Of a stretch of 64,000 nt of DNA, positions 1 through 63,824 are shown piece after piece. Source of the stretch: Balanoglossus misakiensis (lineage: Eukaryota > Animalia > Hemichordata); contig CM082577.2 of the NCBI GenBank assembly GCA_040954595.2, positions 2,995,703 to 3,059,702 of the forward strand. The letters run 5' to 3'. The notes beneath the pieces were generated by a model, which did no database searches, was not told where the DNA came from, and saw only the letters and a list, made by a program, of their open reading frames with translations. Position numbers and translations under genes: made by a program. Position 1 is the stretch's first letter. Every line of letters begins with the position of its first letter.

Positions 1-611
1 AGCCGAAGCGGATTTTTGATAAAGCGCTGTAGTGAGATCGTTCGCAATGACGTAAATCGACTTGCTACCTTGCACGTCACAAAAGAAACCCATGTATCCT
101 GATGCGCAGACGCAGACATGGCTGCTCGGATCGTTGTAAACCACGAAGCACGACCCTCCATTTTGGCATGGATTAGACAAACACGCGTCTTCTACATTGT
201 AATGAAGTGAAACGACATAAAAAGGCAACAGTTTTAAAGTTGGCGAAGTCTTTGTGTGTGAGTACATGAAAGTTTGCGAAATACAAGTACACGTACTCGA
301 CAAAGGTCTGGTCTCACTTTCGCAGGGCTACGCATATTAAACATTTGCGAAGGGGGAAAATTGGAAAAATATTTATTTTCCTCCAAGAATCTCTTCCGGA
401 TTAGTATATTTCAATATAGAAACTGGTGTTTCGCAGCGATGTACAAAACCATAAATATTTTACTGGAGGCTGGTAGTATTAGTCTTCCAGTCACGTGATA
501 GTATCTTGTCTGCCCTCACAAGTGATGATTTCGTTTACTGTGCAACGCATGCGTGGCGGTACTGGAGTCATGCATTTCGTGGAATATTGATTGCGGGGTG
601 TAATCACTGAC

Positions 612-10656
<10,045 letters not shown>

Positions 10657-15740: not shown

Positions 15741-15892
15741 TTACGCACTGCTCTCGCTTTTCTTCTTCTTGCGCATGTCCATACAGACACAGTATATCAT
15801 GACGAAGAAGAGCACGAGGATCATGCTGCCAAGTATGGCGGCAATCATGATCCAGAACCACGGCCAGTCGCCAGACGTTCCCGCGCCAGCAC
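15741..15892 (-). CDS. Gene B last exon: TM helix and cytoplasmic tail
   Basis: [50 protein letters not shown] with TAA at 15741-15743. Confidence 0.88.
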
Positions 15893-18800
15893 CTAAAATG
15901 TTGAAACGACAAAAATATTATTTTCCATCATGGTATAGCCTACTAAATATTCAAATCCAACACAATGCATTGATCATAATTGGCGTAACTAACAACAAAG
16001 TTGAATTCGGTAAACATTTACACGCAAACATGGCATGGGTTGGTCTTTGAACGCTCAACCGAATCACAAAGTTCCCACTATGTTGCCAAAAACTAATTTA
16101 CATTAAAATATGAACTTACTGATTCCACAGAGGTCGCCCTGCCAGTTGGACGCACACATGCACGTGAATCCACCCAATTCGTCGACGCATACGCCACCGT
16201 TCAAGCAAGGGCTGCTGGCACAGTCGTCAAAATCTGAACAGACGATAAGACAATATGGATGTCAGGACTGAAGCCTCGTTCAACACGTGAAGTACGCGCG
16301 TGAATTCCAATGTCTACCAGACGCTCTCGAAATAACGACCAGTATCTACATACACGGTAATAATTGCTACACACTTGTAAATTTTCGTATACATACCTCG
16401 CTCGCAATATTCGCCAGCCCAGCCTGGTTGACACTGGCAGACGTATCTGCCCTCAGCGTCAATGGACGAACAGATGGCAGCGTTTCTACACTGGTGGTCC
16501 ACACACATACCAACATCTGAAGACAACAGGGCGAGAAAAATATATGAATAAACATATATGGTAATTGGGCCCGATGCTAACTCAAAATCACAAACCAATA
16601 GAAATTTTCTTCGCTATTTTAAATTGAGTGTCGAAATTTTTCGAAATTACACCAACATGTCCCGTTTTCTGGTGTATAATATATAGAGAGATTAAGTTCA
16701 GCAGCACGTTTATGAATGTAAAAAGTTATTTGGTTGTTAGGTGAGGGTTAAGCGAAAAAATATATGAATTAAGGGACTCACATTGCTCACAGAAGTCGCC
16801 TGTGTAGGCCAGTGGACAGACACACGCGATCTCGCCCAGGGGAAGTGTAATGCATGTTCCGCCGTTATGACAGCGTGGCACGTTGCTGAGGCAGTTAGTC
16901 ACAACACCTGTGAGATGAGATGAAATCATCGATTAGTATAAACTTATAAGGAACCAGCAACTCTCCATATTGATTTAGAAACCTTCAAAAATTACACTCG
17001 AATAAAATTCCTGGCATCAAAACGTTATAAGTATACTAATTTGGGAAGATCGTCTCTACAGCAAGATATAGAAAGTACAAGAAAATCTATCAGGATGAAT
17101 ACAAAACGTACCTATATCGCAGTTTGTGCCGGATATACCGGACGGACACCTACAGAAATATCCGCTCATGTTATCGTCGTGGCACGTACCGCCATTCATA
17201 CACGGGTTGCTGAAACACGCATCGCCTGTAAATCAAAGTCATACAATTTTATTTAGCGGCATCTTACAAAACAAATGAAATTTACAGACATGTACATCTC
17301 CCCACAAGGATCCCCATATGATTATTTGAACTCGTGTAGCCCTACTTGCTGGTTTGGAAAGAAGTAACCGGTATCTCATTAGAATATGAACTTACGTGTT
17401 TCGCATAAGTCTCCTCTCCACCCAGCTTCACACACGCACGTAAATTTGTTGATATCGTTGATGCAATAACCGCCATTACGGCAAGGGTTTTCGGCACACT
17501 CGTCGACTTCTAAAAAAAAATACCAAGTGAACAAATGTCAACAGATTCCGAAATCTTTGAATTTATAAGTTAATCGCTGTAAAGCTCATAGTCTGTCAAT
17601 CAAAAATGGAAAATGTTGTTATTTTTTCTGTCAAGAAACACAATGTTTTAACTAACCATACTCGCAGAACGTTCCTTCGAAACCATCCGCGCAGTTACAT
17701 TGAGTTCCGCCATTGGCCAAGTCGAGACACGTGGCGCCATTTTGACAAGGCACGGATAGACAACCATACAGAGCTGTTGTGGCAAAGAAAAATGAAAGCA
17801 TTCTACTGAATTGTTGCGACAAAAAGGCAGAGATTACAAAATTCTCATTGAAAATCAAGAATTGTCGGAAAATTATACTGGGCGTTCTTATTTCTCCCTG
17901 TGATTCTCTGTACAATGCAATAAAAATCATCCACTTTTCGAACTTACCAACTTCACATCGACTGCCTTCAAAACCAGTTCGACAGAAGCAGGTGAAAGTG
18001 GCCTTTCCTCCAATGCAGGTACCGCCGTTGTCACAAGGGTTTGGCGCGCACGCGTCAATTTCTGTCAAAAGCGGATAAATTCGCGGAGAAAATGGTTATT
18101 ATAACAATAACACTTAAAATGTGCCATTAAGCCAAAGTAAATCACTCTTTCGACAATAAAAAACGTCATACATTGTATATCGATGAGTCACCGTTGTAAG
18201 CGCTAGTTGTGGTAACGTAGTGAAACTATGCCTTTACAAATTGAATCTTCTTAAACCACCAATCAACTGTTGGAAAGGGCAATTATACAAGACCCACAAC
18301 TGACCTGTTTCGCAGAGACTGCCTTCATAGCCTGGTGGACATGTACACGTGTATTGGTTGTTGTACTTGACACAGGTGGCGCCGTTGTGGCACGGACTGC
18401 TGGAACACACGTCATAACCTACAGGCGAAGTCAAACATTGTACCAAGGTTAGTCATATTTCGCTAGCTCAGGTCTAGGTCTGAATACAACCCACAACTCT
18501 GCGGTTAACGACATCTTAAACGGACAAGGGGCCCACAGGTATGGTCTTGTCAATTACTTCATTGTCAATGTTGGTGATTCTTACCTGCTGAGCACTGGTG
18601 ATGGTCCACGCCTGGCGGGCATATGCAGACGTGACTGCCGAGGGTATCCAGACAGGTTGCCGTGGGCGGGCACGGGTTGCTGGAGCAGTCGTTGATATCT
18701 ACGGATGGAAGAGGAGTGAAGTGAAGAATCACATATACTCACTGCAAACGTCATCAACTTACAAACTGCGACAGGCTTCGGTTGACGTGCAGAAATGACT

Positions 18801-21800
18801 TTAGAATTGTCTGAGTTTACTTACTGACTTCGTTCTGACAGTTAATTCCGTCCCATCCTTCGCTACAGACACAGACATACTTATTGATAGAGTTGATACA
18901 GGTTCCTCCGTTCTGACACGGCGAGCTGGAGCATTCATTGATGGCTGGGGGAGAGAATAGGATGGAGATGAAATGGTGATATTATCAGGACTCATTTGGT
19001 GGACTATCATAATGGCAATTAGGTAGTGAATATATGGACGTAAATTTAACTTTTGAAATAAAAGAAGAGAGAGATGTATCCACTCACTGTCTGATTGGTC
19101 GGTTTCGTACAGCCTGACGGAGAACCCGGCCTCCGTCTTGTCGTAGTCGCTGGTGAATCGAATCCAGCACTCGTTGCCGTCCGTGACGATAGAGGGCGGC
19201 TGGTCATTTCCGGACCAGTGCAGCCGGCGCGAACCGACATCCTGGGCGTCGGCCCAGAGCCCCACGTCCACCCAGTCGTACTTCCACTCCGTGTTGAAGT
19301 CCTGGAACACCACCTGAATGTGCTTGCCGGGGTCGCAGCGGACGATCCAGCGGCAGAACTCGTTGTCGCCGTAGTTGGCGGGATAGTTGGGGGAGTGGAG
19401 TTCGATGGTGCCTTCGTCGGAGATGTCGACCTCGGCAATGCAACCGATTTCTATCAGATTATGGAGAATATCATTGTCAGGTAGTCTTATAATTTCATCA
19501 CTGACTGTATCGAAAATCCTTGCGTGAACTCAGTACCCAATACAAATAATAATGATAATGTCACAAATGTTTTTTTCTCACAAGTGTTCACGTATAATGA
19601 TAATACTAGTATTCCTCATACCTAAATGACAGTTGTTTCCTTGGTAACCTGACGGGCACTGACATCTGTATGATCCGGGCATGTCGATACAGGTTCCGCC
19701 GTTTACGCACGGACTGCTAGCACACTCGTTGGTCTCTGCAAAATGGAACCGTACAACAAACGATCACCAACGCGTAAAAACGTCGTTTGAATCATAAACA
19801 GACCAAAACACAATAGTTTACGAAACCCTGAATTATACAGACACTGATAAGCTGTGTATTAAAATAAGATGTCTGAAATTACTGAAGTTACGTTTAAACA
19901 GGAGTTTCTTGCTGTGACGTGTTTTGATAAATTACATTCCCTGAGAAAAGTGACTTGACACGTGTCAGTCACGTGACTTACCTATCTGGCAGAATATACC
20001 ACTATATCCGGGGAGACAGGAACAAGAAAACATGTTGGGTCCGTTGATGCAGGTTCCTGCGTTGACACACGGGCTACTCAAACATTCATTGATGTCTACA
20101 AAGCGACGAAAAAGATATCCGTGTTAAAGTTTACAGGACTCAACACGGTGGTGTCTTTGGTATATAGAGAATGCCAATGATTTCTTTTAACTCGAGATGA
20201 CTTTCGCACCATCTAAATCATTGAAAGTGGTAAGGATAGTAGAAGTTTTCGATAATGAAAGTTTCAAAATAAAACAAAGAGAATTTGCGTCTTAGACTAA
20301 TTACCGGTTTCACAGCGCACTCCAGTCCAACCGGCTCTGCAGTAGCAAGTGTAACCATTGATGCCGTCCGTACACGTACCGCCGTTCAGACATGGGTGGC
20401 GATCACATTCATCGATTCCTGTAGAAAGATGAGGAAGGTTGATTTAGTCATTATTTTGAGAGAGAAAAGACAGGGATTTCCAAAGTCACATCACGTGATA
20501 AAAACAGCTGTTTCAATAATATATCACAGAGGGCATTCTGCAAACTTACCAAGCTCACATCGTTGGCCAGTGAAGCCTGGTATACAGACACAGGTGAAGT
20601 AGGTCTGACCAGCTTGGTGATTGCACGTTCCGCCGTTCATACACGGACTACTTTGACATAGATTCACAGCTGGGAAAATAACAAAAAAAATATTATGATC
20701 ATTTTAACAGTTAAATATCGAAAGTTAGGCAGAACAATAGACCAAAACAAAAAATTAAGGAAAATACCACTTAAAAAACTAAAGGAATAATATTGAAATT
20801 TCACGTACCTATTTCACAGGTAAGACCTGTCCAGCCAGGTGTACAGGTACAGGTGTAACTTGAGAAGTGGTTGGTGCAAACGCCACCATTTTTGCAAGGG
20901 TTTGTCTGACATCTGTCGACACCTGCAGAATTATGAAAATGATAAAAGTTAGACACCGGGTCATAAATACATGGCAGTTTCACTTGTTCAGAACTCGGAG
21001 TCTTGTTGTTGACAACACTGCAGAAATGCGAAGAGTAGAAGATATCACATCTCTCCCTTACCGATTTCACAACGATCGCCGGTGTAGCCAGTCATGCAGG
21101 AGCAGGTATATCCGTCAACCTGGTCGTTACAGAATCCGTTGTTCTGGCACGGGTTGCTGGCGCACTCGTTGATGTTGGTCTCGCAGCGAGCGCCGGTGTA
21201 TCCCATCACGCAGTTGCAGGTGTAGTGCGTGTTTCCGGTTCCGGCGACGCACATGCCGCCGTTCAAACACGGGTTGCTGGTGCACGGATTGAGAGCTGGG
21301 AACGGGAAGTGAAAATATGAAAGTTGACGACGACTGGGCATAATACATAGACTTGGTTTCCGGACATAATCCGTGTTTCTAATGACAATGCAAATATCTA
21401 TATTCGTCTTACCTATCTCACAACTTGCTCCCGTGAAACCCAGAAGACAGCTGCAGCGATAGTAAGTTCCGTAGTTGCTACACACTCCATCATTCAAACA
21501 TGGATTGGGAGAGCACAAGTCAAGGGCTGTGTGAAGAAACAAAATATTTTAGGGAACAATCAACATTCTTCCACAACACATACCAGTAAGTTAGTACTCG
21601 AAAACCTATCACAATGTTTGCGAAAGGTCATTTTACAGATGTTCTATTTTCCCTCATTTCGCTTTGCCTTTGATTATTGTGGTTGGCAGATGAGCAACTC
21701 GACTTACCTATTTCACAGTAAGTTCCGGTGTAGCCAGTTCGACAGGTGCACTGGAAGTAGGTCTGGTAGTTTGTACAGACAGCACCGTTCTGGCATGGAT

Positions 21801-24800
21801 GAGACAAGCAGTGATCTTTGGCTGCAAAGCAGAAGTGATATACAGTATAGGTTAGCTGACCGTACTCGACTTGCCAAGTGTCGATTTTTACTTTGGTTTA
21901 GATCAAGTTTCAGTGAGGGAATGACTGGTCCTTAGAAAGTCACTGCCTGTAAATTGATCAAAGTTATGCAAGTTGCAAGTTGGCTGTAGTGGACTACTCA
22001 CGCATTTCACAATTGATTCCAGTCCATCCAGGTGCACACTCGCAGGCGTAATGTGTGTACAGGTTGAGACAGGTGCCGCCATTTTGACAAGGACCTTCAC
22101 TGCAGGCATCAACAACTTTAATAGAAAACAAGAAAAATATTTTATTTTTTGAAGGAAACTATAATATAGAATACATGTAACTGTCTTATACTTGTACGTG
22201 TGACAGGGAAAAATGGTTGGTTTACATATGTGCTTTTATAGTCCCTCTAGTTATTGCGAATATGTTCCGACGTCAAAAATAAATCAGGCAACGATTGTGG
22301 GGATCACACGAAAGTTCGCGATGCTAGTACATGTACACATTGCGATACGCCTAATGAGACGATGACGTCCAACTTACCAACTTCACAGTTTATGCCGGAC
22401 CACTGTGGCAGACATTGACACTGGTAAGTCAGTCCACTGGCGAGGCAACTACCGCCGTTCAGACACGGGCCGTTGTAACAGGGGTCAAAGACTGCAGACG
22501 ACAAAAAGTGTCAGTTAGCAATCACAAAATATCGAATCTACATATTGCTCCGAAAATTTCAATTAAGAACATAGATATCGTTGTTGCAAAATTTTCATAA
22601 TGCAAATAGGATATAAACAGTCGCTTACCCTCGGTACAAGTTGGTCCCATCCAACCTGATGCGCATGAGCACGTGTAGTAGAAGACGAAGTTGTGGCAGA
22701 CGCCACCATTCTGGCAAGGGGAGTTGCGACATGCATCTACCGCTACAAAAAGTGAAATAAAATGACATAGAAAAGTTGTCAAAAACTCATAGCAAATATA
22801 TCAGACACTACGTGTTATTAAATGTTGAAAACTGTAAAAACAGTTGCCTTATCAACGCCGAAACCCACGAGAATTTGAAATAAATCTGAATATGCGTCAG
22901 ACTTACGCGTCTCGCAGTTGTTTCCAGCCCATCCGTTTAAGCAAGTGCAAGAATATGAATCCAGCAGGCTCTGACAGGCCCCGCCGTTCAGGCAAGGGTT
23001 CGGCGAGCACAAGTCGACTGCAGTGGAACAATCCAGACCTGTCCAGCCGCGCAGACAACTGCAAGTGTAGAAATTCTGGTAGTTGCTGCAAATGCCGCCA
23101 TTTCTACAAGGGTTGGGGTTGCATCTATTGATTGCTGGAGATTGAAATGAGAAAATCATATAATTACCACATTTGTACGTTAAACATGACTGTTATACCA
23201 GTAACGGTTAGTAATTAAATAACGCTTGCATGTGGCATACCTATCTCACATCTATCCCCAGTCCATCCGAGAGTGCAGGCACAGGTGTACGTCGTCTGGA
23301 GGTTGGTGCATAAACCGCCGTTGAGACACGGGTGAGAAGCGCACAGATCGGTGGCCACTTCGCAGTTCGGCCCCGTCCAACCTTCAGCACAGCGGCACAG
23401 GTAGTACGTTCGGTAGTTGACGCATTCGCCGTTGTTGAGACATGGGGTACGAATGCACAGATCGATTTCTGTCGGGAGACAAGAAAGGTGATTATTATTG
23501 TTATATTCTTGTAGAATTAAATTAAAACTTCGCCAAGTTATACAACAGTACGACTTCTATTGAGACATGTGTGCAGTGTACGTACAAGATCCAAATCTAT
23601 ATCTATCTGTTACTTACCGATTTCACACAGAGTGCCGGTCCAGCCAGCCTGACACCTGCATTCGAAGTACGTGTAGTGATTGACACACTGTTGTGTACCG
23701 TGTGAACAAGGGTTACTGGCGCAGGCATCTCTTTCTGTTAAAAGAAAATCCAAATTTTAAATATACAAGGACACGAAGTCCATGGATCATGCACATAATC
23801 GCTGTTAGTTCGACTAAGTTTCAAAATAATAAAACGCTTCTTCTTACCGAGTTCACACGTCAGACCGACGTATCTGTCCGGACAGGTGCAGGTGTAGTAC
23901 GTTCCGAAGTTGGCACACGCTCCACCGTTCAAACACGGTGGAGTGGAACACATGTCGACCACTGAAACGAAACAGAAAGTGGTTATAGCGACTGTATTGC
24001 CAGATGCTTTCTCGTCCATCTTGCTAGTTGAGACGACACGATTTTTGAATGGTGTCTATATAACTGCTATCGCACATTCCTCTCCCCGTCTCTCTCTTCC
24101 CCCTCTCTCATATCATCGCACACATTTCACTGTACAAGGAACATTGTCATTTCGATAAAGAAACTCCAGGAGCATTGTTAAGGTACTCACGGGTCTGACA
24201 ATTCTGTCCTATGTAGCCCGGCGGGCACTGACACGTGTAATAGGAGTAGTGATTGGTGCAGCGCCCTCCATTGATGCATGGGCTGCTGGCGCATGCGTTC
24301 ACCACTGGCCAAGAAAGGGAACAAAATGTTATCAAAACATTGTTGCAAATGTCAGCGTATATGAGAGTAAGTTGTGCCAGTGTTCAATTATATACAATTA
24401 TCATATCCATTGTTTTCATTCATCAAATTTAATCCAACTTACCAGTGTCGCAGTTGTCTCCGGTCCACTGCTGGGGGCATGTGCAAGTGTAGGAAAGGCC
24501 GTTGTTGGTGGTGCAAATTCCGCCATTCAGACAGGGATAGGACTGGCACAGGTTGATAACTGGAAATATAGAGACGGGGACAGGAAGATGAACACACTGT
24601 ATCAGTCTGTATGTGTCTGTCTGTCTGTCTATCTATACATGGCACGGGGTGTGTGTTGTTCTGCTTAGGATCTAGATACCTCCTAGGGAACTATGATTAA
24701 GCATACCTTGATCGCAGTTGATTCCAGTGTAGCCAGGTGTACACGCGCAGGTGTAGTATGATACGAAGTTTTGGCAAGTAGCACCATTCCTACACGGGCT

Positions 24801-27800
24801 GTTAAGGCAAAGGTCGACCACTGGAGAAAAGGGGAAAACAGTGTTAAAAGCTCAAGATCATGTCATTGTCATCATGATTACATCTGTTAAAATTAAGACA
24901 TGATAGATGTTAACACCATACCTGTTTCACAGTTTGTTCCCGCGTATCCCTGAAGACACGTGCATGTATAATAGTCGTAGAAGTTATTACAGCTGCCGCC
25001 ATTGCCGCACGGATTTCCCACGCATGCGTCGATTGCTGTCGAGGAGTCAGAAGAAAGCAATGATTGGATGTTTCAAAAATTTGTATTAAATCATCAGTGG
25101 GGACAGGTCAGTAAAGTACGGCAGATGTTTATCTGGATGACATGCCGTGTGACCATTTCCACTTTGTTTTAAAACGATATTTCCTCTGTGTTTTAATATT
25201 TGTGATATGGCAAATGCAGAAAAGGGGTCAAAACTGCAGCATACTTACGGACTGAACAGGTTGGGCCACCCCAGCCTACTGTGCATGCGCAGGAGTATGA
25301 CGTGTAGAGGTTATTGCAAATGCCGCCATTAATACAGGGGCTGCTCAGACATGGATTCATTTCTGGAGAGAAAAAAAACGATGAAATAAAGCGTTGATGT
25401 CATTTCTGGAGAAAAATGTGTATTCTGAAAACTCCGATTGGTTGATATCAAGCATGATGTATGCAAAGTGGAAGAAATGAATGCGAGAACGAAACAGTTA
25501 CTGACCGTTGTCACAGTTACTGCCTGTCCAGCCGGGTGTACATTGGCATTCGTAGTAAGAGTAATAGTTGATGCAACTTCCGCCGTTTCTGCAGGGAGTC
25601 GTCGCGCATGCGTCAACGGCTGTTGGCAAATCGTAGAGAAAGGAGAGTTAAAGACTGCGATGCATCGCATACACACTGATGGAAAGTAGAATTGTATCGG
25701 TCAGAAGAGAGATAAAGTCGATCGAATCCGTGAAGAGTCTCGGTGATGGGCGAACTAGAGATGCGACAGACCACTAACAAAATCACGCATGGCAGGTTAA
25801 TTGCTAACGCAACATCATTTTTTTAATAGTTCGATGAAGATCAAAACAGGCTTCTAACAACCAAACGTAGACTCACCAACTTCACAAGTCGGACCAGTCC
25901 ATGCAGTACTACAGGTACACGTATGGTGGGTACGGTAGTTGGTACAACTGCCGCCGTTTTTGCAGGGGTAACTGGTGCAGGGATTCATTTCTTGAAGAAA
26001 ACGAACACATGACAATTAATCGATGTACAATTGATGGCAATATTACCAATTGGAAGCTTATTTTTAAAGAAACGTAACACAGTACTGCGCATGTTCTACA
26101 TGTCTAACCACAGTGCAAGAAACAATAGATCGTACTATGCGACTTGCTCATAATCACCAGTACTGCGCAGACACGAATACGTATGAGACAGAACTAAAAC
26201 TACAGGTTCAGAACAGTCAATTCACCTACCTGTCGCACACGTGCTTCCAGTCCATCCATCCACACACTGACATGTGAAGTACGTCTGGTGGTTTGTACAC
26301 TGGCCGCCGTTCAGACAAGGATTCTCAATGCAAAGATCAATGGCTGTGACAATTAAAAAATCATTAATTCTACAAGAACACATACGTACTTTCCGGAATA
26401 ATTACAACATTAAATATAAACCAAGGTTTGCGAAGATGACCAAGTCTTAAACAATACGCGGTAAATAATACATGCATTTCATAATTAGCAATTCGTATGT
26501 TTCCGTTTGCTTACCGATCCCACAATTGTCTCCAGTCCAACCGCCTTGACAGAAACACGCGTAGTACGTTGCAAAATTTGTGCAGATGCCGCCATTGAGA
26601 CACGGATCGGGACTGCACAGGTTGATGACGATGCCACAGCTGGTTCCAGTAAATCCTGGCAAACACGTGCACGTGTAGTAGGATCCGAAGTTCTGACAGG
26701 TACCGCCGTTGAAGCAAGGATTGGCCAGACACAGGTCGATCTCTGGTTGGCCAAAGAAGAAATCACGTTACGGTCACGTGGAATTTGTAGTCGACACGAT
26801 CTTGAAACACATGAACATAATACGACAATTCTGAAGTTAGAAATGCAAAGAAATACTAAGCAATCGCAACTTACCGTTGCCACAGTTTCCGCCGTTGTAA
26901 CCGGCTGCACAGTCACAAGTGTAGTACGTGTATCGGTTAATACACTGACCGTTGTTGAGGCACGGTGCGCTTAGGCAGGGGTTCATTTCTGCAAGAATGG
27001 ACACAAAAATTGACAAAAGATATTTATTGCATACTTTAAAACCAGCTGCATGTACATTGTAGCATATCCTGTAAAAGAACATGTACAGTTGTTTGTGAGA
27101 AGTATTTATTTAAAAATATATTTGTTCACCTGTTTCACAATTGGCACCACCCCATCCTGCCTGACACTGGCATGTGTAATACGTATAGTAATTTGAACAC
27201 TGGCCTCCGTTGAGACACGGGTCATTTCTGCATGGATTCAATTCTGGGAAGCATCAGAAAAAGAACAAAAACGAGTTATGTTAGTGTGCCGTTAGAAACG
27301 CCTTGTTACAATAATTGTATCTGTAGCAAAGAACACTGCCAACACATTTCAATGTTATTGTTCGTCAAAAGCTTTTGTGGGAGGGTAACTTACCATTCTC
27401 ACAGTTGACTCCGCCCCACCCAATCAGACACTGACAAGTGTAGTAGTCATAGTAATTGATACAGTTGCCGCCATTTTGACATGGGCTGTTCACGCAAGCA
27501 TCGACCACTGTTGGAAAATTCAGATAAAAGTTAAAGTTTTGCCTTCGGGCAAATGTCGTCCCCCCGGATGGTCATTGATTTGGTGTGGCTACAATTGTTC
27601 ATCGAAGATAAACAAGAGGGAGTCTCGTAACACTTACTGCATACCCGGTTACAAGTTCTAGCATGAAATAAATAACCACTATGTGCTAAAATCGCCCAAG
27701 GACAACACCAACAGGCTTACCTTCAGTACAGTATGGACCACTCCACTCCTTCGGACAACTACAAGTATAGTATGTCAAGAAGTTGTTACACTGGCCGCCA

Positions 27801-30800
27801 TTCTGGCAGGGGTAACTGAAACACGGATTTGCTTCTGCAAGAGGAAAGGTAATAAAACACTTTGTCAGATTCTAAAAAGTCTTATTCTAGCGCGTTAACG
27901 TATACAATTATACTAGTCCGATTGCCTGAACGATGGTCTGATTTCTTGTGGCCATATGATATAGTGCTGACACAATACAACCCAATTTGTGATCTGTTTT
28001 ATATTGTTGCATCTACCTTAATTCAGTTCAAATGGTACAAGTGGAATTTTACCTTGGTCACAGTTTGTTCCCGTCCATCCACTTGGACAAGTACACGTGT
28101 AATACGTGTAGAAATTTCTACAACCTCCGCCATTCAAACAAGGGTTACTCTGACACGGATTCAGTTCTGAAAGAGAAGACATTTCAAAATGATATCAGAA
28201 AAATGAATCATTATGCATACAACCAAAATTCGACGAAGCCTGTGGTCTAAACAAACAGAACCGATATTCTTACCTATTTCGCAGTTTTGACCTCCCCATC
28301 CCCGTGCGCATGTGCAGGTGTAGTAGGTGTAATAGTTGTTGCAAACTCCGCCGTTGAGGCATGGCTGATCAGCACACAAGTTAACCTCTGTAAGAACGGT
28401 TAGAAGCCTAGTGAAGTCAAACTAACAGTCTGAGAGCACCACTCACTTAAATATGATCAACATTCAAATTCTGATATATTCCCGCAATGTTGATGTTTTA
28501 TTTTCATGGACAACATATACTACGGTTGGCATGCTGTATGAGACAACACGACGGAACACACAGGGTACATACCTATATCACAGTGAACTCCAGTGAACTG
28601 GCTTGTACAGTAACACGTGTACTTGTTGTGTTCGTTCATGCAAGTACCCCCGTTCCTGCACGGATTGCTTGCACACTCGTTGATATCTGGAAGAAGAACA
28701 CACAAATATTAATGCATCATTACATGGAATATAAGGTATCGACTATTTGTACATACACTACTCTTACATGCGTATTACTATCTGCAATTTGACATTCTTC
28801 CCAACCGGAAAGATCGAAGAGCAGACAATGTCGGGAATGCATCGATTACTAACCTGTGTCGCAGTTGATTCCTGTCCAACCCGCCGTACATGCGCAAAGA
28901 TAACTGTTCTGGAGATTTGTACAAACAGCCCCGTTGAGACATGGTTGGTTTGAACACTCGTCAAAATCTGTAATGTGATGAACAACACGTTTAATAGGAT
29001 TCAGAATAGCTGCGTTAGAGGTTAGACATTTGTATGTTTAGCTCCAAGGTACATGCACATCCATGCCGCACAGAATTAATAATATTGTACTAAAGTGCGC
29101 GCTATACATTGTGAAATCAACTATACACGAACAACTGAAGTTTCCTTTACCTAGTTCACAATTGGTCCCAGTCCAACCAGGTACACATCTACATGTATAG
29201 TGGGTATGGTGATTGACACAGGTGGCGCCATTCACACATGGATTGTCAGCACACTTGTCAATTTCTACAACCAAATTGAAGCAGAGATTATTATCAATAC
29301 GTTGTGCTTGCTTTTGTAAAACTGTTATGGAAAGGGGCAGATGCTGTTTCCAGTACTCCCACTTGACACCATCAGGAATTTTTTTCAAAGAGTTCGTCAA
29401 TTGTCTTACCTGTCTCGCAGTCTTGTCCAGTGTATTGGTAGGTACAGGTGCATGCATAACGACTTGGTGGCACAAGGTTGTAGCAGGTGCCTCCATTCAT
29501 GCATGGTGGATTGAAACACTCATCGATGTCTGTTTCACAGTTGGTGCCCGTCCATCCAAGATGGCAGACACAGCGGTAGTCATTCTGAAGGTCGATGCAC
29601 GTCGCCCCATTCCTGCACGGCACGGTGGCACACTCGTCGGTGTCCACTTGGCAGTTGATGCCGTGCCAGCCAGCGGGGCACTGGCACGTGTAGCCGTTGA
29701 CCCGGTCGGTACAGACACCGCCGTTCAGGCAGGGGTTAGCGGCACACTCGTCTATGTCGATTTGGCAGTTCAGTCCCGTGTAACCGGGCGCGCAGGTACA
29801 ACTGTAGGCGGCCTCCAAGTCAACACAGGTTGCTCCGTTCAAGCAGGGACTGCTGCGGCACTCGTCGGTTGAGGTCTCACAGTTGACGCCAGCCCATCCT
29901 GCTGCACACGAACACTGGTAGGCATTGAAGAGATTGATACAGGTTGCCCCATTCAAACATGGAGACAAAGAGCACTCGTCAAAGTCAAGGTCACAATCTG
30001 TACCAGTCCAGCCCGGGGCACAGTTGCAAGTGTAAGCGTTGACGTGGTCCCGACAAACACCTCCATTTTGACAAGGGTTGCTGGCACACTCATCAACGTT
30101 GGTCTGGCAGTTTTCACCTGTCCAACCAAGCAAGCAAGTGCAAACATACCTTCCGACGTAATCATTGCAGGTGCCACCATTCAGGCAAGGACTACTGGAG
30201 CATTCATCTATTTCGATCTCACAGTTGAAACCCCGCCACCCTGTTGCGCAGGTACAGGAGTAGGAGTTTTGCAGATTGTTGCAGAAGCCTCCGTTCAGGC
30301 AAGGTGAGCTGTAACACTCGTCAAAGTCGATGCCACAGTTGTGGCCAATCCAGCCAGCAACACAGCTGCAGGTGTAAGAGTTGATATTGTCGAGGCAAGC
30401 ACCCCCATTCAAACATGGTGAGCTCGCACACTCATCAATATCTGAAAATAATTAGACAAATGTTATTAAGTATGTATATCAGATTGACATTTTGTTTAAT
30501 TCTATCAAGATATGTCTTTTAGCACTTTTATGTCTTACCTATTTCACAGTTTGAACCAGTCCATCCTTGGAGACACTGGCAGGTATATCGGTTAATTCCA
30601 TCGATGCAAATACCACCGTTGACACATGGATTGTTCAGACACTCGTCAACATCTGGAAAAGTAAGGGCATGGTTGAAAGATTCAATACAACAATGTTAAG
30701 TTCGATGACCACCTTTAAAAGGCAGAGACATTTACAATAAAAATTGACCAAATGATTGAGCATATATATTAGTGGCATGACTTCCACTTACTTGTTTGAC

Positions 30801-33800
30801 AGTTAAGGCCCGTGAAACCAGGAAGACAATTACAGGTGTATCCAGTCAAACCATCGACACAGATGGCACCATTGAGGCATGGAGCAACAGCACAGAAGTC
30901 AAAATCTGAAAGCGAGAAAAGTATTAACACAATAAATTACTCAATGATGCTATATGTTTTAATTTTGCTTACTCATTCCCATTTCAAATATATGTAGTGG
31001 TCTCCAGCCATGGTTCATAAACTCATTATAACTGCACACACTTACCAATTTCACAATTTGTGCCAACCCATCCCAAGGGACAGTCACATCTGTAGGCATT
31101 GAGCATGTTATGGCAAGTTCCACCATTTTGGCAGGGACCGGTAGCACATTCATCCACATCGATTTCACAGTTGACTCCCTGCCAACCAGGTGTGCATGTA
31201 CAGGTGTACATATTGATTAAGTCCATGCATTCCCCTCCATTCCAACAGGGACTGCTGGCGCATTCATTGATCTCGGAATCACAGTTGATACCAACCCATC
31301 CCGGAGCGCAGTCACATCTGTAGGAGTTTACCAGGTCAATGCAGGTTCCACCATTTGAGCAAGGGCTGCTGATACACTCGTTGAAATCGACGCCGCAATT
31401 GGAACCTATCCAACCTTGCACACACGAGCACGTGTAACCATCGATGCCATCAGTACACACGCCACCATTCAGGCACGGATTGCTCGCGCACTCGTTGATG
31501 TTGATCTCGCAGCGCAGGCCAGTCCATCCGGACGCACACGTACAGGTGTACCCGTTGATACTGTCAGCACACACACCTCCATTAAGACACGGGTTACTGG
31601 AGCACTCATCAATGTCTGTTCCACAGAGTGAGCCGGTCCACCCTGGTAAGCATATGCACGTGTACCCAGCAACGGAATCGCTACAGATTGCACCGTTTAG
31701 GCAAGGATTACTGGCGCATTCATTGACATTGGTGTCACAATGAACACCAGCCCAGCCCGCCAGACAGTCACAGGTGTAGCCGTTAACAATGTCTCTGCAA
31801 GTCCCACCATTTACACATGGACCACTGACGCACTCGTCAATGTTTGTCTCACAGTGAGCACCGTTCCATCCTGGTACGCAGACACAAGCATAACCATTCA
31901 CGGCATCTTCACAAAGTCCACCATTCAGACAAGGACTGCTGGCGCATTCATCGATATTGATCTGACAGAAATCACCAGTCCACCCAGCAACACAGGTACA
32001 CGTATAACCATTGATCGCATCGAGGCAGGATCCACCATTCAGACAAGGGGCGCTGGCACACTCATCAATGTTGACTTGGCAGAAATCGCCCTCCCAACCA
32101 AGCGCACAGACACACGTGTAGCCATTGACTGAATCAATACATAAACCACCATTGCGACAGGGGCTACTTGCACATTCGTTGATGTTGATTTCGCAATATA
32201 TCCCCATCCAACCGGCACTGCAGCTGCAGGTGTATCCATTCACCCCATCTTGGCAGATGGCTCCATTCAGACAGGGATTGCTGGCGCATTCATTAATGTT
32301 GATCTGACAGAAGTCGCCGTTCCAACCAGGCAGGCAAGTACACGTGTATCCATTGATGGCATCGATGCAGTTTCCGCCATTGAGACAAGGGCTGCTGGCA
32401 CACTCGTTGATGTTGATCTGACAGAAATCCCCAGTCCAACCAGCAACGCAGTTACATGTGTAGCCATTAATGCCGTCCAAACAGTTGCCACCATTCTGAC
32501 AGGGACTACTGAAGCATTCATTGACATTTATTGCACATACATCACCGGTCCAGCCTGGCAAGCAATTGCAGGTGAAGGCATTTACACCATCTATGCAGGA
32601 CCCACCATTCAGACACGGGTTATTGGCACACTCGTCGATGTTGATTTGGCAGTGCAGACCACTCCAGCCTGCTAGGCAGGTACAAGTGTAACCATTGATT
32701 CCGTCCACACAGTTGCCGCCATTCTGACAAGGGTTGCTGGCACACTCGTTGAAATTTATCTGACAGAAGTCGCCCATCCAACCAGGGAGGCATGAGCACA
32801 TGTAACCGTTAACTAAATCTGCACAGGTACCGCCGTTCTGGCACGGGTTGCTGGCGCACTCGTCAAAGTTGATCTGGCAAAACTCTCCAATCCAGCCAGT
32901 GATGCACGTGCAAAGGTATCCATTGACACCATCAGCACAGGTAGCGCCGTTTAGACACGGGTTGCTGGCACATTCATCAAAGTTGATTTGACAGAAGTCA
33001 CCGGTCCAGCCAGCGATACAAGCACACGTGTAACCATTGATTGAATCCATGCATGTACCTCCTTTCTGGCAAGGGTTACTGGCACACTCATCAAAGTTTA
33101 CATGACAGAACTCACCGACCCATCCTGCCAGACAGGTACATGTGTAGCCATTAATCGAGTCAGAACAGGTTCCTCCATTCTGGCACGGGTTGCTGGCGCA
33201 TTCATCGAAGTTTATGTGGCAGAATTCTCCAATCCACCCAAAGGCACATGAACACATGTAGCCATTGATAGCATCGGTGCAGGTACCGCCATTTTGGCAT
33301 GGATTGCTGGCACACTCATCAAAGTTAATTTGGCAGAAGTCGCCAATCCAACCAGCATTGCAGGAACAGGTGAAGCCATTGATGCCATCAGTACAGACGC
33401 CGCCATTTTGACAAGGATTGCTTCCACATTCGTTGAAGTTTATATGACAGAAGGCACCGACCCATCCTGCCAGACACGAGCAAGAGTAGCCATTGACCAA
33501 ATCAGAACACGTGCCTCCATTCTGACAAGGGTTGCTTGCACATTCATCGAAGTTGATGTGACAGAACTCGCCGATCCATCCCGGGACGCATGAACACGAA
33601 TAACGGTTGATCAGGTCTGTGCAGGTGCCGCCATTTTGACAGGGGTTGCTTGCACACTCATCGAAATTGATCTGGCAGGTATGTCCAACCCATCCTGCAA
33701 GACACTCACAGGTATAGCCATTGATTGAGTCGACGCAGTTAGCACCATTCTGGCAAGGGTTGCTGGCGCACTCGTCGAAGTTGATGTGACAGAAGTCTCC

Positions 33801-36800
33801 GATCCAGCCGGCAAGACAGTTACAGGTGTGGCTGTTGATTCCATCGATGCAGGTACCACCATTGCGACAGGGATCGGAAGCGCATTCGTTGATGTTGATT
33901 TGACAGTAGTCACCAGTCCACCCTGGGAGGCAGACACAAGTGTAGCCATTTATACCATCAAGGCAGTTGCCTCCATTCTCACAGGGGGAGCTTGCACACT
34001 CGTTTACATTGATCTGGCAGAAGACACCTGTCCAACCGAGCGCACAGGTGCAGGTGTAACCATTGACAGCATCGGCACAGGTACCACCATTCAGGCAAGG
34101 GTTGGAGGCACACTCGTTGATGTTGATCTCACAAATGTTTCCAGTCCAACCAAGCAGACATGCGCACTGGAAACCGTTGATCAGATCGGTACAAGTACCA
34201 CCATTCAAGCATGGATTTACAGCACACTCGTCGATGTTAATCTGACAGAAATCACCTGCCCAGCCAGGCATACATGTACACGTGTAGCCGTTTACTGCGT
34301 CTACACAAGTACCACCGTTGAAACAAGGACTACTAGCGCATTCATCAATGTTGATCTGACAGAAAACGCCCGTCCATCCTAAATCACAGGCGCACGTGTA
34401 ACCATTGATACCGTCCAGACAGGTTCCACCATTCTGACAAGGGCCGCTCGCACACTCATCGATGTTGATTTCGCAAACGTTGCCAGTCCAACCAAGGAGA
34501 CAGGAACATTGGTAGCCATTGATCAGATCGGTACACACGCCACCATTCAAGCATGGATTTACGGCACACTCATCGATGTTGATCTGACAGAAATCACCTG
34601 CCCAGCCAGGCATACATGTACAAGAGTAACTATTCACCGCGTCCACGCATGTAGCACCATTTAAACAAGGACTACTAGCACACTCGTTGATGTTGATCTG
34701 ACAGAAGACGCCCATCCATCCTAAGACGCATGTGCACGTATAGCCGTTGATTCCGTCGAGACAGGTACCACCATTTTGACAAGGATTGGAGGCACACTCG
34801 TTGATGTTGATTTGACAGGTATCACCAGTCCATCCGAGTAGACATGCGCACTGGAAACCGTTGACCAGATCGGTACAAGTACCACCATTCAAGCATGGAT
34901 TTACAGCACACTCGTCAATATTGATCTGACAGAAATCACCCGTCCAACCAGGCATACATGTGCAAGTGTAGCCATTTACTGCATCAACACAGGAACCACC
35001 ATTTAAACAAGGACTACTAGCACACTCGTTGATATTAATCTCGCAGAAGACACCAGTCCAACCCAAGACACAACTACACGTATAACCATTGATACCATCA
35101 AGACATGTGCCACCATTTTGACAAGGATTTGAAGCACATTCGTTGATGTTGATCTCACAAACGTTTCCGGTCCAACCAAGCAGACATGCGCACTGGAAAG
35201 CATTGACCAGATCAGTACAAGTACCACCATTCAAGCATGGATTTCCGGCACATTCATCGATGTTGATCTGACAGAAATCACCTGCCCAGCCAGGCATACA
35301 TGTACACGTGTAGCCGTTAACTGCATCTACACATGTACCACCATTCAAACAGGGACTACTAGCACACTCGTTGATGTTGATCTGACAGAAAACCCCCGTC
35401 CACCCCAGGAGGCAGGCGCACGTGTAGCCATTAATTCCATCGAGACAGGCGCCGCCATTCTGACAGGGATTCGAGGCGCATTCATTGATGTTGATTTCAC
35501 AGAAGTCCCCCGTCCAACCCAGAACGCAGTTGCAGGTGTAAGCGTTAATTGCGTCAAAGCAGGTACCACCATTCTGACAGGGACTACTAGCACATTCGTC
35601 GATGTTGATCTCGCACATATCACCAGTCCATCCAGGAACACAATTGCAAGTGTATCCGTTGATCAGGTCGATGCAGGTGCCACCATTCACACAAGGAGCG
35701 CTCAAACACTCGTTGATATCTGAAAAATATACCAACAATAAAATAAAATCATGATTAAAACTACAATCACAGTTGAAGATTTAACACTCGTGTGAGTCCT
35801 GTGTTTTTATGTACCTTCCAAACTTTTAATCATTTGTAGGAAGTTATAACAATGACCCCCAGCGATGTTTGGGAGATATTTATGTCACCCTGTCCACATT
35901 TTATAATGAGGTTGATCAGGTAAATGTGGTTCTGTCGAACCAGACTGCGGAAACTCACCGATTTCACAGAAGGTCCCGGTGAAGCCAGGAGCACAGATAC
36001 AAGAACAGCGGTTGATACCGTCGACACAAGTTGCGTCATTCAAACAAGGATCGCTGGAACATTCGTCGAAATCTGTAAAGGGGAAATTTCACAGGAACAT
36101 AATATGTATTGCCCCTATAGTAGTTATCTTGGGTAGAAATATTGACAGCTTACGGTGTAGTTGTTCTCATGTCATGTGTATAAAAACGCCGAAGGACCCA
36201 AGGATACAATAGTGTTGATAGGGATTTTTATTTAGGTTTTCCACTTACTTATTTCACATCTAGTCCCAACCCACCCTGGGACACATTCACAGGAAAAGGC
36301 GTTCAGGAGATTGCTACAGGTTCCGCCATTCTCACAAGGATTGCTGTCACATTCATTGATGTCTACAAAATTGGAACACAAAAGAAGAAATGTTAGAGCG
36401 TTTGTATTGAATGGTCTATGGATAAAAAGGGTCATGCTCACCTTTTTATAGGTGAACAGGTCTAATTCTTGTAGATGGAATTTATAAGTAATTGTTCCCT
36501 ACCCGACCTTTACAGCCTAAAGGTTCAGAAAAATACTCACCTACACACGTATATGTGAAGGGTTCATCAATACATCGATAACCAGGTTGACACGGATTAC
36601 TTGCGCATTCGTCGGCATCTGAAATCAAAATCAAAATACGCACTCAGTCAGTCTACTTATCAAAGCCATTAAATGGGTATATTTAAGTAGATAACTCAGA
36701 TATGATTGTTCGTTTCCTTTCTCAATACCTGCCTTTATAGTGGAAGAAAATTAAAATTGACTTACCCACTTCAAAAGTTATGTTGAAACCTTGAAAGAGA

Positions 36801-39800
36801 ATGTTTTTATCGGTGAAGAATGTCATCCACACCTGGTCGTCCTCGACCAAGAAGACGTTATTGGCATCCGGCAGCCCGATTCCCTGGAACGTGTACAGGA
36901 TCTGGTCGAAGTCTACGACCGGGCCGACACCGATCTCTACCACGTCTTTGTTCATCTCCGTCTCGAAGAAGTTGACGGTCAGCCGAAGGGCGTAGGCGTT
37001 GGGGTAGGATATGAGGTAGAGGCAGTTCATTCGGTTTTCATACTCTCCGGGATGGTTGGGCGACGTCACGTCGAACGTCTTCATGTTGTAGAAGTTCTCG
37101 CCGCAGTTACCGACTGTTGAGTTAGTAAATCAAAGTGTTTTTTGTTTTACAAATGGAAGGATGAACCAACATACGGATTCGGAAAGGAAAAGAACCGATA
37201 TCAATGTCAGAACTATTATTAAACCTGACTACAAGTGTGTTTAGTTTTACGATTGGTTTAATGAAGGTGTGTACTTGTGTGCACAGTTTACGTTGAACAG
37301 TGTTTGACCATTATGTCTAGCTGGACAGGTCGTTCACTGTAGTATAACATTTATCAAAGTTATGTGACATAAAAGACGCCTATTAACCGCACAAGTGAGG
37401 AATCCAAGACTATTGTCCGGAGCTATTGTCCGACCTTTTGTGCTGTTTACGAGTGATGAACTCATAGTCAAGAGGAAGGCGCTGGGGGCGCACTTCCGCG
37501 GTGACTCTCCAAGCGAAAGCGAACTTTCCGGAAGGCCCACCCGCAGGCAGTGGGCCTTTACAAAGACGTGTGACAATACTACAAAAAACAAGAAACAATA
37601 CTCTTTCCTACAGCCGTTGTTGTGAGTTTCCTTCCTTTATATTTTCCCCACTTTCCCCTTCTAACCTAACCAAACAGGACGTGGTCTTTAGGGGAGGAAG
37701 TTTGTGTTTCCTACCTGTATTTTGATCGCAGGTGATACCCATGAAACCATACGGGCAATGACATCGGTAAGAGCCGCTGTCCAGGTTAAAACACGATCCT
37801 CCATTCTGGCACGGATTGCTGGAACAAGCATCTTGTCCTAAAATGAAAGGAAATCAGTCCTATTACAAAAACTTGTTATATAGCTATTAGTCTCTCAGAC
37901 TGGTAAAACCAATCTAAGTCGTTTAGAACCACTGCATCCGTTAAAAAGTGATCACATTTCGTTAAATTTTGAACTTCATTGTTTAAATCGTCGGATTAAA
38001 ACCGCCATCCACCGTGCTTCCTCTGACGAACAATGCAAGGTCGCGCCTTTTCCCCACCGTGGAATAATCACATGTATGGGAATGTTAACCCGTGCCTCTA
38101 GGGTGATATTTTTAATATGATGACGTTTGCATTGTTTTGAGTGTCGGGCTATTCATCGGTTTCATCCGTCGTAACGGCGATACTTGTTTTCACTAGCGGT
38201 AAAATGTTCACACGCCAACGCGAACGGTTTTCAGTTCCACAATTCCCTGAGACCAATCAGGCAATCAAGCATTTTATCAGCACGAAAAAAATGAAGGAAA
38301 CGCGGCAATTTAAAGTCGTTTCAATGGCATATCTCCACTTCGCGTATTACAGTAACACGACCGCGCATGCAAGAAGCCTGTCGAGTGAAACTTCCACCAT
38401 CTTCCGTCTAGACGATTTTGACAACATTCCGAAGGGGTCACACCGGTGTCAATGTCACCCTTAGAGTACAAAGGAAAGGAACGCCGTGAACAGGGGTGCG
38501 GAGTTTCCGGTCAAACACCTGAGGCTCTCTTTGCAAGGAAGCTTAGTGCGGGGTGCGAATTCCACTTTCTCTCAAGGTGGGGAGACGCGATTTATGATTA
38601 TGATAATACCTTTAAAGGGGCAATACGATATTCTACGTGACGTCAACAGTGTAAATAACCCTCAACAGAAAAACAAATCTGCACTGTGTTTACCCTAGCA
38701 ATTCGAAATGGCACATCCTTGGTTTAATTAGCCTCAATTCATTGTAGGGATAAAACGAAATGTTTGATTTCAAAACACCTTTGTAAAATAACTTAATAGC
38801 AAGATAAAAGCTGGTATCAATTACAAGGTTGCGAAACAAATATAGTGAAATTAATTGAAATCTGACAAAGCTTCATGAAAGAGGGGAGGCTGTTCTTGCT
38901 TGACAAACTCGAATCGAAGTCCAGTATAGACTATGGTGACCTCAGTGAGTTTTGGTTGAGTCAGATACGCCCAACCTCTCGATCGAATATTGCTTCTTTA
39001 GAAGAAATAATCGCCCCGCCGCTTAATCATACCCAAGTCCCATAACACACCCTCTGCGGGTGAAGTATACGAACAAATATAGCCCTGTCCCTTTCTACGC
39101 CTTTTAAGTGGCCTTTTTATGTCCAACACATAAAAGCGCGCAATGAGTGTCCCGCACACTAACAATGACGTTTTGAATGTGAATACTATAACAGCCTTGG
39201 GTGTTGATATTTACAATGACTACACAGCTGATTTTGCCGGTTGATTTCACCCGGGGCCCCGTGTACTAATAGAGTAAATCTCCATTCTATAACCTTGGCA
39301 GTAATGTGCCTTTTTGTGTGGGATCACGAGGCTTGTGGTATTTCGCAACTTCAGGGTTAGCGTGTTTTATGGGGATATCGAGGGTATCAATTTCAATATC
39401 AAGGGCAACTGTTTGGGTATTCCCGGTGTATTTCCAAAGTATAATCCTGCCAGTCGGGGGCTTACGGACATACCAGCAGGTATGGCAAACTTATTATTTT
39501 ATACACGGAGCACGTTTCTTCTTTCTGTACATGTGAAAGAATTCAAGTAAAAGATCCAGAGATTATGATGTATGACGCAAACTCTCTGTTAACTACAGGT
39601 TGCCTTGAGATATTACGACAAGTATCGCATTTGGCGTTGTATAAACATGAAAAACATGTCAGAAAGTCTCGTGGGGTGCATTCTGATGGTCCAGTGTAAC
39701 TTTTTAGGCTGCACTCTCGATCAAAGTGGTCTCATCACGCTTTATACTGAACCCCGATTCACAGACGCGAGACTTGTTTTTACATGTGCTTAGCGCGAGT

Positions 39801-40284
39801 GAGTTCTTGTGCCGAGTCGAACATTCCGAGCAACTAAAAGATTACCTGTTGCCCGGAAATCTACAGACACATTTCAAACAAGAAGGCGAAAGTGTCCTCA
39901 TCGAGACAACTCTGACATTTCGGAGATTTACGGCGTCCGTCAATCATGTGCTAATACTGGCTCCTCTTAAAGTCGGTGTATATTATAGTTAGTGTATCAG
40001 GCGTTGTCTTACTTTCACTGCGAACTTTGGAACAGTTTTCTTCCACTCGCCACCAAAATGACATCGCGGACAGGGTGAAATGATGACAGAAAAAAGTTAC
40101 GATGAAAAATTAATCCAGACCACTGGGATTTGAACTTAGTCATTACAGTCCCCGACCCCGGGGACAAGCACAAAATCGAAAACGCCAGCAATAAATGCGT
40201 GTACAACTTTCACTCACCTTGTGATTTGACATCGGGTACTGCTGTCAACGACAATATAACGGCGATAAGGTAAACCGACTTCAT
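15741..40284 (-). CDS. Gene B: giant fibropellin-like type I membrane protein (SP-EGF-CUB-about 90 EGF-CUB-10 EGF-TM-short tail), 55 coding exons, about 4231 aa
   Basis: Exons: 40218-40284, 37715-37837, 36766-37113 (CUB1), 36541-36618, 36249-36362, 35959-36072, 31046-35719, 30792-30905, 30539-30652, 29410-30441, 29151-29264, 28854-28967, 28573-28686, 28274-28387, 28053-28166, 27721-27834, 27394-27507, 27130-27243, 26875-26988, 26515-26742, 26230-26343, 25877-25990, 25506-25619, 25249-25362, 24922-25035, 24707-24820, 24443-24559, 24191-24304, 23848-23961, 23618-23734, 23241-23468, 22907-23134, 22629-22742, 22378-22491, 22002-22115, 21708-21821, 21413-21526, 21062-21295, 20809-20922, 20550-20669, 20305-20418, 19982-20095, 19622-19735, 19088-19450 (CUB2), 18825-18944, 18585-18698, 18305-18418, 17948-18061, 17657-17773, 17396-17509, 17112-17225, 16782-16907, 16397-16516, 16120-16233, 15741-15892. 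All introns are phase-1 GT-AG, and the manual sum of 12696 nt is divisible by 3. Confidence 0.9.
19088..19450 (-). CDS. Gene B membrane-proximal CUB domain exon
   Basis: GCIAEV...[18 protein letters not shown]...[13 protein letters not shown]...[17 protein letters not shown], a canonical CUB motif in a 363-bp phase 1-1 exon. Confidence 0.93.
20550..29264 (-). CDS. Gene B block of roughly 30 Tyr-rich non-calcium-type EGF modules, mostly one per 114-bp exon
   Basis: Recurrent C-x-N-[YFHL]-x-[TSD]-Y-Y-x-C-x-C, e.g. [36 protein letters not shown]. Confidence 0.88.
29410..30441 (-). CDS. Gene B exon encoding 9 calcium-binding-type EGF repeats
   Basis: 1032 bp = 9x114+6; D-[IFVT]-D-E-C motifs; matches ORF 29372..30412. 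Confidence 0.93.
31046..35719 (-). CDS. Gene B giant exon encoding 41 calcium-binding EGF repeats
   Basis: 4674 bp = exactly 41x114; consensus [38 protein letters not shown]; matches ORF 31026..35738 trimmed to splice sites. Confidence 0.96.
34124..35491 (-). repeat. 342-bp higher-order coding tandem repeat (3 EGF x 4 copies)
   Basis: The motif cctgcccagccaggcatacatgtaca recurs at 35281, 34597 and 34255, with a variant at 34939, i.e. a 342-bp period. Confidence 0.85.
36766..37113 (-). CDS. Gene B N-terminal fibropellin-type CUB domain exon
   Basis: NCGENF...[18 protein letters not shown]...[22 protein letters not shown]...[22 protein letters not shown]. It resembles, from memory, the sea urchin fibropellin CUB (KDVVEYGIGP...FSTDRNIVNRGFRITF). 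Confidence 0.92.
40218..40284 (-). CDS. Gene B first coding exon (signal peptide)
   Basis: [22 protein letters not shown] plus a phase-1 gtgagt donor; joins in frame to EGF exon 37715-37837. Confidence 0.8.

Positions 40285-44438: not shown

Positions 44439-63824
<19,386 letters not shown>

Follow-up and report, generated by a model that had tools for sequence, protein, structure and literature searches.

On the minus strand of a 64,000-nucleotide stretch of Balanoglossus misakiensis DNA (contig CM082577.2, positions 2,995,703 to 3,059,702; hereafter the window), we found one real, intact and very long gene, predicted from genomic DNA, for a membrane-anchored protein with 102 epidermal growth factor-like (EGF) modules and a distal CUB domain of the fibropellin type. 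We propose that this giant EGF protein is a structural tether or spacer between the epithelial cell surface and the apical extracellular matrix. We assign this role a probability of about 0.5 from the sequence features described below, and it appears to be the most likely one because the protein combines the tip of a matrix protein with a lengthy shaft and a minimal tail. Giant membrane EGF tethers are known as a class, and the gene extends this design; what sets it apart is an unbroken run of 91 EGF modules and its division into two blocks.

Gene model and integrity

The open frame, running from an ATG at 40284 to a TAA at 15741, was predicted to comprise 55 exons with a coding sequence of 12,696 nucleotides, 4,231 residues and a single stop codon. 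The predicted protein consists of a signal peptide, EGF1, CUB1, a truncated EGF module with four cysteines, 91 EGF modules, CUB2, ten further EGF modules, a transmembrane helix and a tail of 13 residues. The six-cysteine EGF modules number 102, in addition to the truncated module and the two CUB domains, and the model matches the preliminary description of the locus, which listed 102 EGF modules plus one truncated, a second CUB domain, a transmembrane helix, a tail of about 13 residues and a 12.7-kb coding sequence. All 54 introns were GT-AG introns in phase 1; the first two measured 2,380 and 601 nucleotides, and the 52 that follow CUB1 measured 97-265 nucleotides. Exon ends were fixed by rule from the cysteine pattern, with four overrides and five exons placed by hand. 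A regular expression for EGF cores gave 132 matches on the minus strand of the window and none on the plus strand, and the DNA was intron-rich and of animal type. A search of sequencing runs with 29300-36400 listed no RNA data set, which speaks neither for nor against transcription. Pfam PF00431 matched both CUB domains (E 3e-16 and 9e-19), and Pfam recognized 41 EGF stretches within the 4,674-nucleotide exon. The membrane anchor put forward earlier was also recovered as a single transmembrane helix in the last exon; the sole 19-residue windows with a hydrophobicity above 1.6 begin at residues 4190-4205 and are followed by the 13-residue tail.

As the gene model was derived from genomic sequence alone, a fusion of two genes, a repeat expanded during assembly or a pseudogene might have been mistaken for one gene, but we consider such an artefact extremely improbable. 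The frame was open across all 55 exons, the introns were short and no internal signal-peptide or transmembrane exon was present, in agreement with the one gene described earlier; no signal-peptide-like exon was found inside any of the 54 introns under the filter used. Additionally, the sea-urchin relatives described below likely carry the same two ends. Upon comparison of the EGF units at the DNA level (92 of the 102, of equal length), the highest identity was 0.91 and no two units were identical. Between the 41 EGF units that the large exon encodes, differences numbered 17,160 at third codon positions versus 7,992 and 6,633 at the other two. Assembly expansion of the array was rejected on the grounds that identical units are absent and third-position, synonymous changes are in excess; this excess and the divergence of the units fit an old tandem duplication under purifying selection. 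We also observed a period of three modules in EGF4-18, with identities of 0.78-0.79 at lags of 3, 6 and 9 and of 0.67-0.70 at other lags. Most modules occupy one exon each, and blocks of 41 (31046-35719) and nine (29410-30441) lie in intronless exons, a layout that points to tandem expansion within exons or to loss of introns.

The fibropellin-type tip, the membrane-proximal base and the family

The best single-domain match of CUB1 was fibropellin-3 of Lytechinus pictus (XP_054771358.1, stored as P0126), with 47-49% identity (54/115), and it remained the best match among 2,078 CUB domains from all stored proteins. The HMMER search with CUB1 took the best 150 of 1,328 matches by whole-protein score and then rescored them per domain; because of this ranking, relatives with a single CUB are under-sampled. 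The EGF-CUB-EGF cassette was 45% identical to fibropellin-3 over 186 residues. Among the matches listed, a 142-residue record came next, followed by proteins of Ptychodera, Asterias, Patiria and Anneissia. A search by word index with only CUB1 as query recovered none of 44 candidates, a CUB profile search showed no further avidin-type fibropellin in the best 120 of 574 matches, where cubilin and tolloid proteins dominate, and the ESM Atlas search returned generic CUB clusters only.

In a 69-row tree of selected CUB domains, CUB1 fell inside a 23-row group that split off at 98/91 and adjoined the group containing fibropellin-3 at 84/62. In a 20-row tree of cassettes, the CUB1 cassette was placed with Asterias and Ptychodera at 86/86, and sisterhood of the cassette with fibropellin-3, the only avidin-bearing fibropellin in these trees, was not rejected by the approximately unbiased (AU) test (p 0.083). 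By sequence, CUB1 is of the fibropellin type. The grouping with fibropellin CUBs that had been anticipated held for the best match and for the wider group, but CUB1 was not resolved as the sister of fibropellin-3.

An AlphaFold2 model of CUB1 had the standard CUB fold, with a predicted local distance difference test (pLDDT) score of 90.8, and matched solved CUB domains, including those in cubilin, MASP and neuropilin complexes. Residues Y24, E52, D56 and D101 were invariant in seven of seven aligned relatives, and we take Tyr-Glu-Asp-Asp at these positions to be the calcium-site signature of calcium-binding CUBs. The truncated EGF module downstream has the same spacing (Cx4Cx5Cx8C) as CREMP modules, and the same four-cysteine module recurs after three separate CUBs in Asterias proteins; we rejected decay as its origin because of this conservation. 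CREMP modules have been described as stable two-disulfide truncations of EGF (section 6 of 10.1101/2025.09.16.676614).

CUB2 was considered as an internal copy of CUB1, and this was rejected (21/97 residues identical; CUB1-CUB2 sisterhood AU p 0.0007). In the 69-row tree, CUB2 grouped at 92/71 with the CUB of a tandem paralogue upstream of the gene and with sea-urchin and Amphiura CUBs, two sea-star CUBs (Acanthaster and Patiria) lying outside this group. The cassette tree divided CUB2-type from tip cassettes at 100/100 with no third group, and by these sequence comparisons CUB2 is a CUB lineage separate from CUB1. CUB2 is not adjacent to the transmembrane helix; ten EGF modules lie between them. 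No furin-type site was found in the giant EGF protein, the only dibasic match being within CUB2 at residue 3746. Every exon of the model encodes signal peptide, EGF, CUB or transmembrane sequence, and no DSL, LNR, ankyrin or ZP domain and no DPY module was present. No endocytic or signalling motif was apparent by eye in the 13-residue tail. The region encoding the tail (15741-15800, minus strand) contains two juxtamembrane cysteines, possibly palmitoylated, and ends in Ser-Ser-Ala, presumably a weak PDZ-type motif.

The avidin domain was looked for as well. None of the 44 minus-strand open reading frames of at least 35 residues in 10750-16130 matched the Pfam Avidin model, which matched fibropellin-3 at E 6e-30 as a positive control, and a tblastn search of the window with the fibropellin-3 avidin domain gave nothing better than E 0.85. 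The absence of avidin noted previously was thus confirmed in the window. Fibropellin-3 shares with the giant EGF protein the order signal peptide-EGF-CUB-(EGF)n and an array of calcium-binding-type EGF modules, whereas the 102 EGF modules, the truncated EGF, the second CUB and the transmembrane helix, and the lack of avidin, set the giant EGF protein apart from fibropellins. Membership by the definition of that family was rejected because the C-terminal avidin-like domain is lacking and the modelled protein is membrane-anchored rather than secreted, although secreted splice forms may exist beside it. The name "mega-fibropellin" given in the preliminary description is therefore an overstatement, since avidin is lacking and the cassette leans towards those of the sea star Asterias and the hemichordate Ptychodera, not fibropellin-3.

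The membrane-anchored design is not unique to this gene, as judged from sequence. Among the best 120 of 941 matches in a long-protein search with the large exon, six carry CUBs that were detectable with the CUBs of the window. Five sequences from Diadema and Lytechinus, including cluster members, have 3,759-3,954 residues. The sea-urchin membrane proteins (Diadema XP_072167955.1; Lytechinus XP_041474351.1 and XP_063961993.1) resemble the giant EGF protein in beginning with an EGF module, a likely degenerate fibropellin-type CUB and a further EGF module, and in continuing with an EGF array, a CUB2-type CUB, eight EGF modules and a transmembrane helix; the two that were fully mapped end in 34 EGF-CUB-8 EGF-transmembrane helix. 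In both trees the N-terminal CUB-like region came out on the side of the fibropellins, and these proteins likely share both ends of the giant EGF protein. They differ from it in having 44-45 EGF modules, with about 1,700-1,800 residues of other repeats replacing much of the array, a tail of about 77-79 residues and no Tyr-rich block. By eye, these repeats are about 135 residues long, and they take the place of part of the EGF shaft (residues about 250-2070 in P0165 and 225-1900 in P0166); they gave no Pfam match.

The asterozoan proteins (Acanthaster XP_022095362.1, Patiria XP_038064211.1 and Amphiura XP_072035205.1) resemble the giant EGF protein in their 62-80 EGF modules, membrane-proximal CUB, 6-10 EGF modules and transmembrane helix, and the Amphiura protein also in its ten EGF modules after the CUB and its short tail. 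They are unlike it in having FN3 or Reeler tips without the fibropellin cassette and a longest EGF run of 36-40; those of Acanthaster and Patiria combine FN3 tips with 71-80 EGF modules and a CUB-EGF-transmembrane base. The transmembrane base was present in all eight relatives checked, and every relative named here is annotated as uncharacterised or "-like" only. By sequence, the giant EGF protein belongs to an uncharacterised echinoderm CUB-(EGF)n-transmembrane family with a shared base and different tips and shafts. The fibropellin relative with a membrane anchor that had been described is supported by the gene model, but its design is common to membrane proteins of sea urchins, sea stars and brittle stars. 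No published membrane-anchored fibropellin relative was found in the full-text literature, judged by title and the start of the abstract, a coverage with few subscription journals and without the first papers on fibropellins.

Two blocks of the array and the proposed tether

Across the 388 proteins examined, no uninterrupted EGF run was longer than these 91 modules, the next best being 45, for a long-protein search that covered 2,726-5,000 residues, with longer EGF arrays out of its range. What we take to be the calcium motif consensus was found in 51 of the 57 modules of EGF2-58, where the net charge is about -3.5 per module, and in one of the 31 modules of EGF59-89, which average 2.6 Tyr per module versus 1.0. 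A Tyr-rich loop motif occurred 20 times in the giant EGF protein and at most once in each of 386 stored proteins; by a looser aromatic count, one clam protein came near, scoring in 19 of 35 modules versus 24 of 92 here. A packing aromatic four residues past C5 was present in 100/102 modules, and 96 of 99 EGF-EGF joints had six-residue linkers. The protein has a strongly acidic composition with little Lys. A single RGD at residue 4017 was treated as incidental. Modelling of eight EGF modules by AlphaFold2 with no alignment gave no usable structure (pLDDT 42).

Calcium-bound EGF pairs of Notch with the packing aromatic are rod-like, joints without calcium may be bent or flexible, and the shape of the latter is not predicted by sequence (PMC4826273). 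EGF2-58 probably forms a rod, because it combines what gives Notch EGF pairs their rod shape: the calcium motif, the packing aromatic and linkers of six residues. At about 3 nm per EGF (PMC3415683), the maximum reach would possibly be about 0.3 µm, and a stretch of about 170 nm within it (EGF2-58) would be stiff; the reach of a few hundred nm suggested before is thus possible. Of the strut envisaged with it, the tethering to the cell stands, but about one third of the array is without the calcium motif, and a uniformly rigid strut is therefore not supported.

In the proposed tether, a type I membrane protein would connect the cell to a matrix that may be the embryonic apical lamina or an adult glycocalyx-like cuticle. 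EGF2-58 would form a calcium-stiffened rod of about 170 nm, and EGF59-89 a differently jointed segment whose Tyr-rich hairpins might serve lateral packing or cross-linking. The distal EGF-CUB cassette may bind matrix partners, either secreted fibropellin-type proteins or its own copies, probably via the acidic calcium site of CUB1. Drosophila Dumpy, which has a ZP domain and a membrane anchor, is an analogue in that it is a giant EGF-array protein linking the epidermis to the apical matrix, and differs in being far larger, with DPY modules and no CUB tip. Dumpy has 308 EGF modules and builds filaments that connect the epidermis with the cuticle (section 6 of 10.1101/2025.09.16.676614), and fibropellins form the apical lamina (PMC10336842, PMC9325501). 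Several points weigh against the tether. The full calcium motif is missing from 30 of the 31 modules of EGF59-89. The array may also be folded up compactly, as is the Notch ectodomain, for which electron microscopy gave about 25 nm instead of over 100 nm (PMC3415683). A load-bearing role is made less likely by the tail, in which no anchor for the cytoskeleton can be recognised. That CUB1 did not resolve as the sister of fibropellin-3 and that the cassette leaned to Asterias and Ptychodera also count here, as do the N-terminal CUB-like regions of the sea-urchin relatives, which Pfam misses and which were cut by eye and have long branches.

The same features were weighed for other roles. The transmembrane helix might be only an anchor for trafficking or assembly, the ectodomain being shed and polymerising as a fibre in a secreted material, such as a tube-foot adhesive meshwork or an egg or larval coat, with peroxidase cross-linking of the Tyr-rich block. 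Tandem-EGF proteins are fibre components of octopus egg tethers (PMC10336842) and occur in sea-star adhesive cells (Sfp3, 4a and 4b; PMC9382459), and urchin tube-foot discs contain peroxidase and a CUB plus calcium-binding-EGF transcript (PMC7037938), which is likened here by description only and might be a member of the present family. The abundance of the Tyr motif relative to the stored proteins also favours such a fibre. However, the lack of a furin-type site, the acidic, Lys-poor composition and the retention of the transmembrane base in all eight relatives argue against shedding, and we regard it as rather unlikely.

Cell-cell adhesion, or decoy modulation of Notch-type signalling via Notch-like glycosylated EGF modules, appears improbable. 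Of the solved structures, those of Delta-like 1 and Notch1/2 come nearest to the EGF modules, and a motif scan with what we assume to be the consensus sequences gave O-fucose sites in 54/102 modules and O-glucose sites in 65/102. The giant EGF protein has the type of EGF module, the linker length and the packing aromatic of Notch and Delta-like proteins, but such likeness is generic among EGF modules of this type; LNR, DSL and ankyrin regions are absent, and the 13-residue tail is too short for Notch-type signalling. A reach of up to 0.3 µm also exceeds ordinary junctional gaps. A long-reach recognition receptor, which would hold its CUB tip beyond the glycocalyx for capture of gametes, microbes or particles, would draw on the ligand-binding nature of CUBs, on the structural matches of CUB1 and on the variation of tips within the family (fibropellin-type CUB, Reeler and FN3). 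The closest homologue of the tip is, however, a matrix protein, and with no endocytic or signalling motif seen in the tail we consider a receptor quite improbable.

Neighbouring genes and significance

The features of the gene and its neighbours are collected in Table 1. The upstream paralogue encodes 25 eight-cysteine EGF modules, five further EGF modules, a CUB2-type CUB (45/115 residues identical to CUB2), 18 EGF modules, a transmembrane helix and its own stop. Its 25 eight-cysteine modules are consecutive single-exon modules (54817-63824, minus strand) with extra cysteines in the C3-C4 loop and after C5, which likely form a fourth disulfide; a regular expression for the main pattern gave 23 matches in this paralogue and none in the 386 stored proteins. 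Between this block and the six-cysteine modules lie three seven-cysteine EGF modules (53849-54597, minus strand), whose best matches are Tyr-rich modules of the giant EGF gene. The downstream Reeler gene best matched, in the local set, Amphiura XP_072035205.1 (P0201; Reeler, 62 EGF, CUB, transmembrane helix) with 36% identity over 171 residues (E 2e-25), and is likely a third family member; the locus would then likely be a three-gene cluster of the CUB-(EGF)n-transmembrane family. A long (CT/AG)n microsatellite lies at about 4515-4650 in an intron of the Reeler gene.

Table 1. Features of the giant EGF gene and of the adjacent genes (window positions).
Feature	Position	Strand	Basis or remark
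Exon 1, ATG and predicted 22-residue signal peptide	40218..40284	-	hydrophobic N-terminus by eye; Q-G junction end as in fibropellin-3
EGF1, without calcium motif	37715..37837	-	gene model, motif scan
CUB1, fibropellin-type	36766..37113	-	Pfam, homology search, tree, structure model
Truncated four-Cys EGF, Cx4Cx5Cx8C	36541..36618	-	gene model; counterpart in Asterias; CREMP-like spacing
EGF2-3, single-module exons	35959..36362	-	gene model
4,674-nt exon, EGF4-44 (41 tandem calcium-binding-type EGF)	31046..35719	-	gene model, Pfam
EGF45-58, mostly calcium-binding type; includes 9-EGF exon 29410-30441	28573..30905	-	gene model, motif scan
EGF59-89, Tyr-rich block, mostly one module per exon	20550..28387	-	1/31 with full calcium motif
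EGF90-92	19622..20418	-	gene model, motif scan
CUB2, membrane-proximal type	19088..19450	-	Pfam, tree; lineage separate from CUB1
EGF93-102, divergent juxtamembrane stalk	16120..18944	-	gene model
Last exon: transmembrane helix, juxtamembrane Cys, basic stretch, 13-residue tail, TAA	15741..15892	-	gene model, hydropathy
PolyA-type hexamer	~15699	-	downstream of TAA exon
Upstream tandem paralogue, 5' end past window; 50 exons seen	44439..63824	-	gene model, tree
Downstream gene: signal peptide, Reeler, EGF exons; runs off window	68..10656	-	Pfam, local search

A broader scenario, which we consider unlikely as a whole, would be that giant membrane tethers with one common CUB-EGF-transmembrane base and swappable tips make up an undescribed echinoderm family, whose members anchor the apical lamina or cuticle to the membrane and act as its length rulers. 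Secreted fibropellins would then have arisen from a tether tip when an avidin exon replaced the base, and this gene would be the most extreme case, encoding a rod of about 0.3 µm made of two materials, one half stiffened by calcium and the other open to cross-linking through tyrosine.

The fibropellins were named for the apical lamina of sea urchins, a layer required for gastrulation (PMC9325501). A membrane-bound family with a fibropellin tip is a concrete candidate for what holds this lamina on cells, and the likely members in Lytechinus (LOC121423126, LOC129270540) and Diadema make that question testable in model urchins. The calcium-type and Tyr-rich blocks, together with the eight-cysteine EGF modules of the neighbouring gene, offer a natural test case for the stiffness and reach of EGF arrays.

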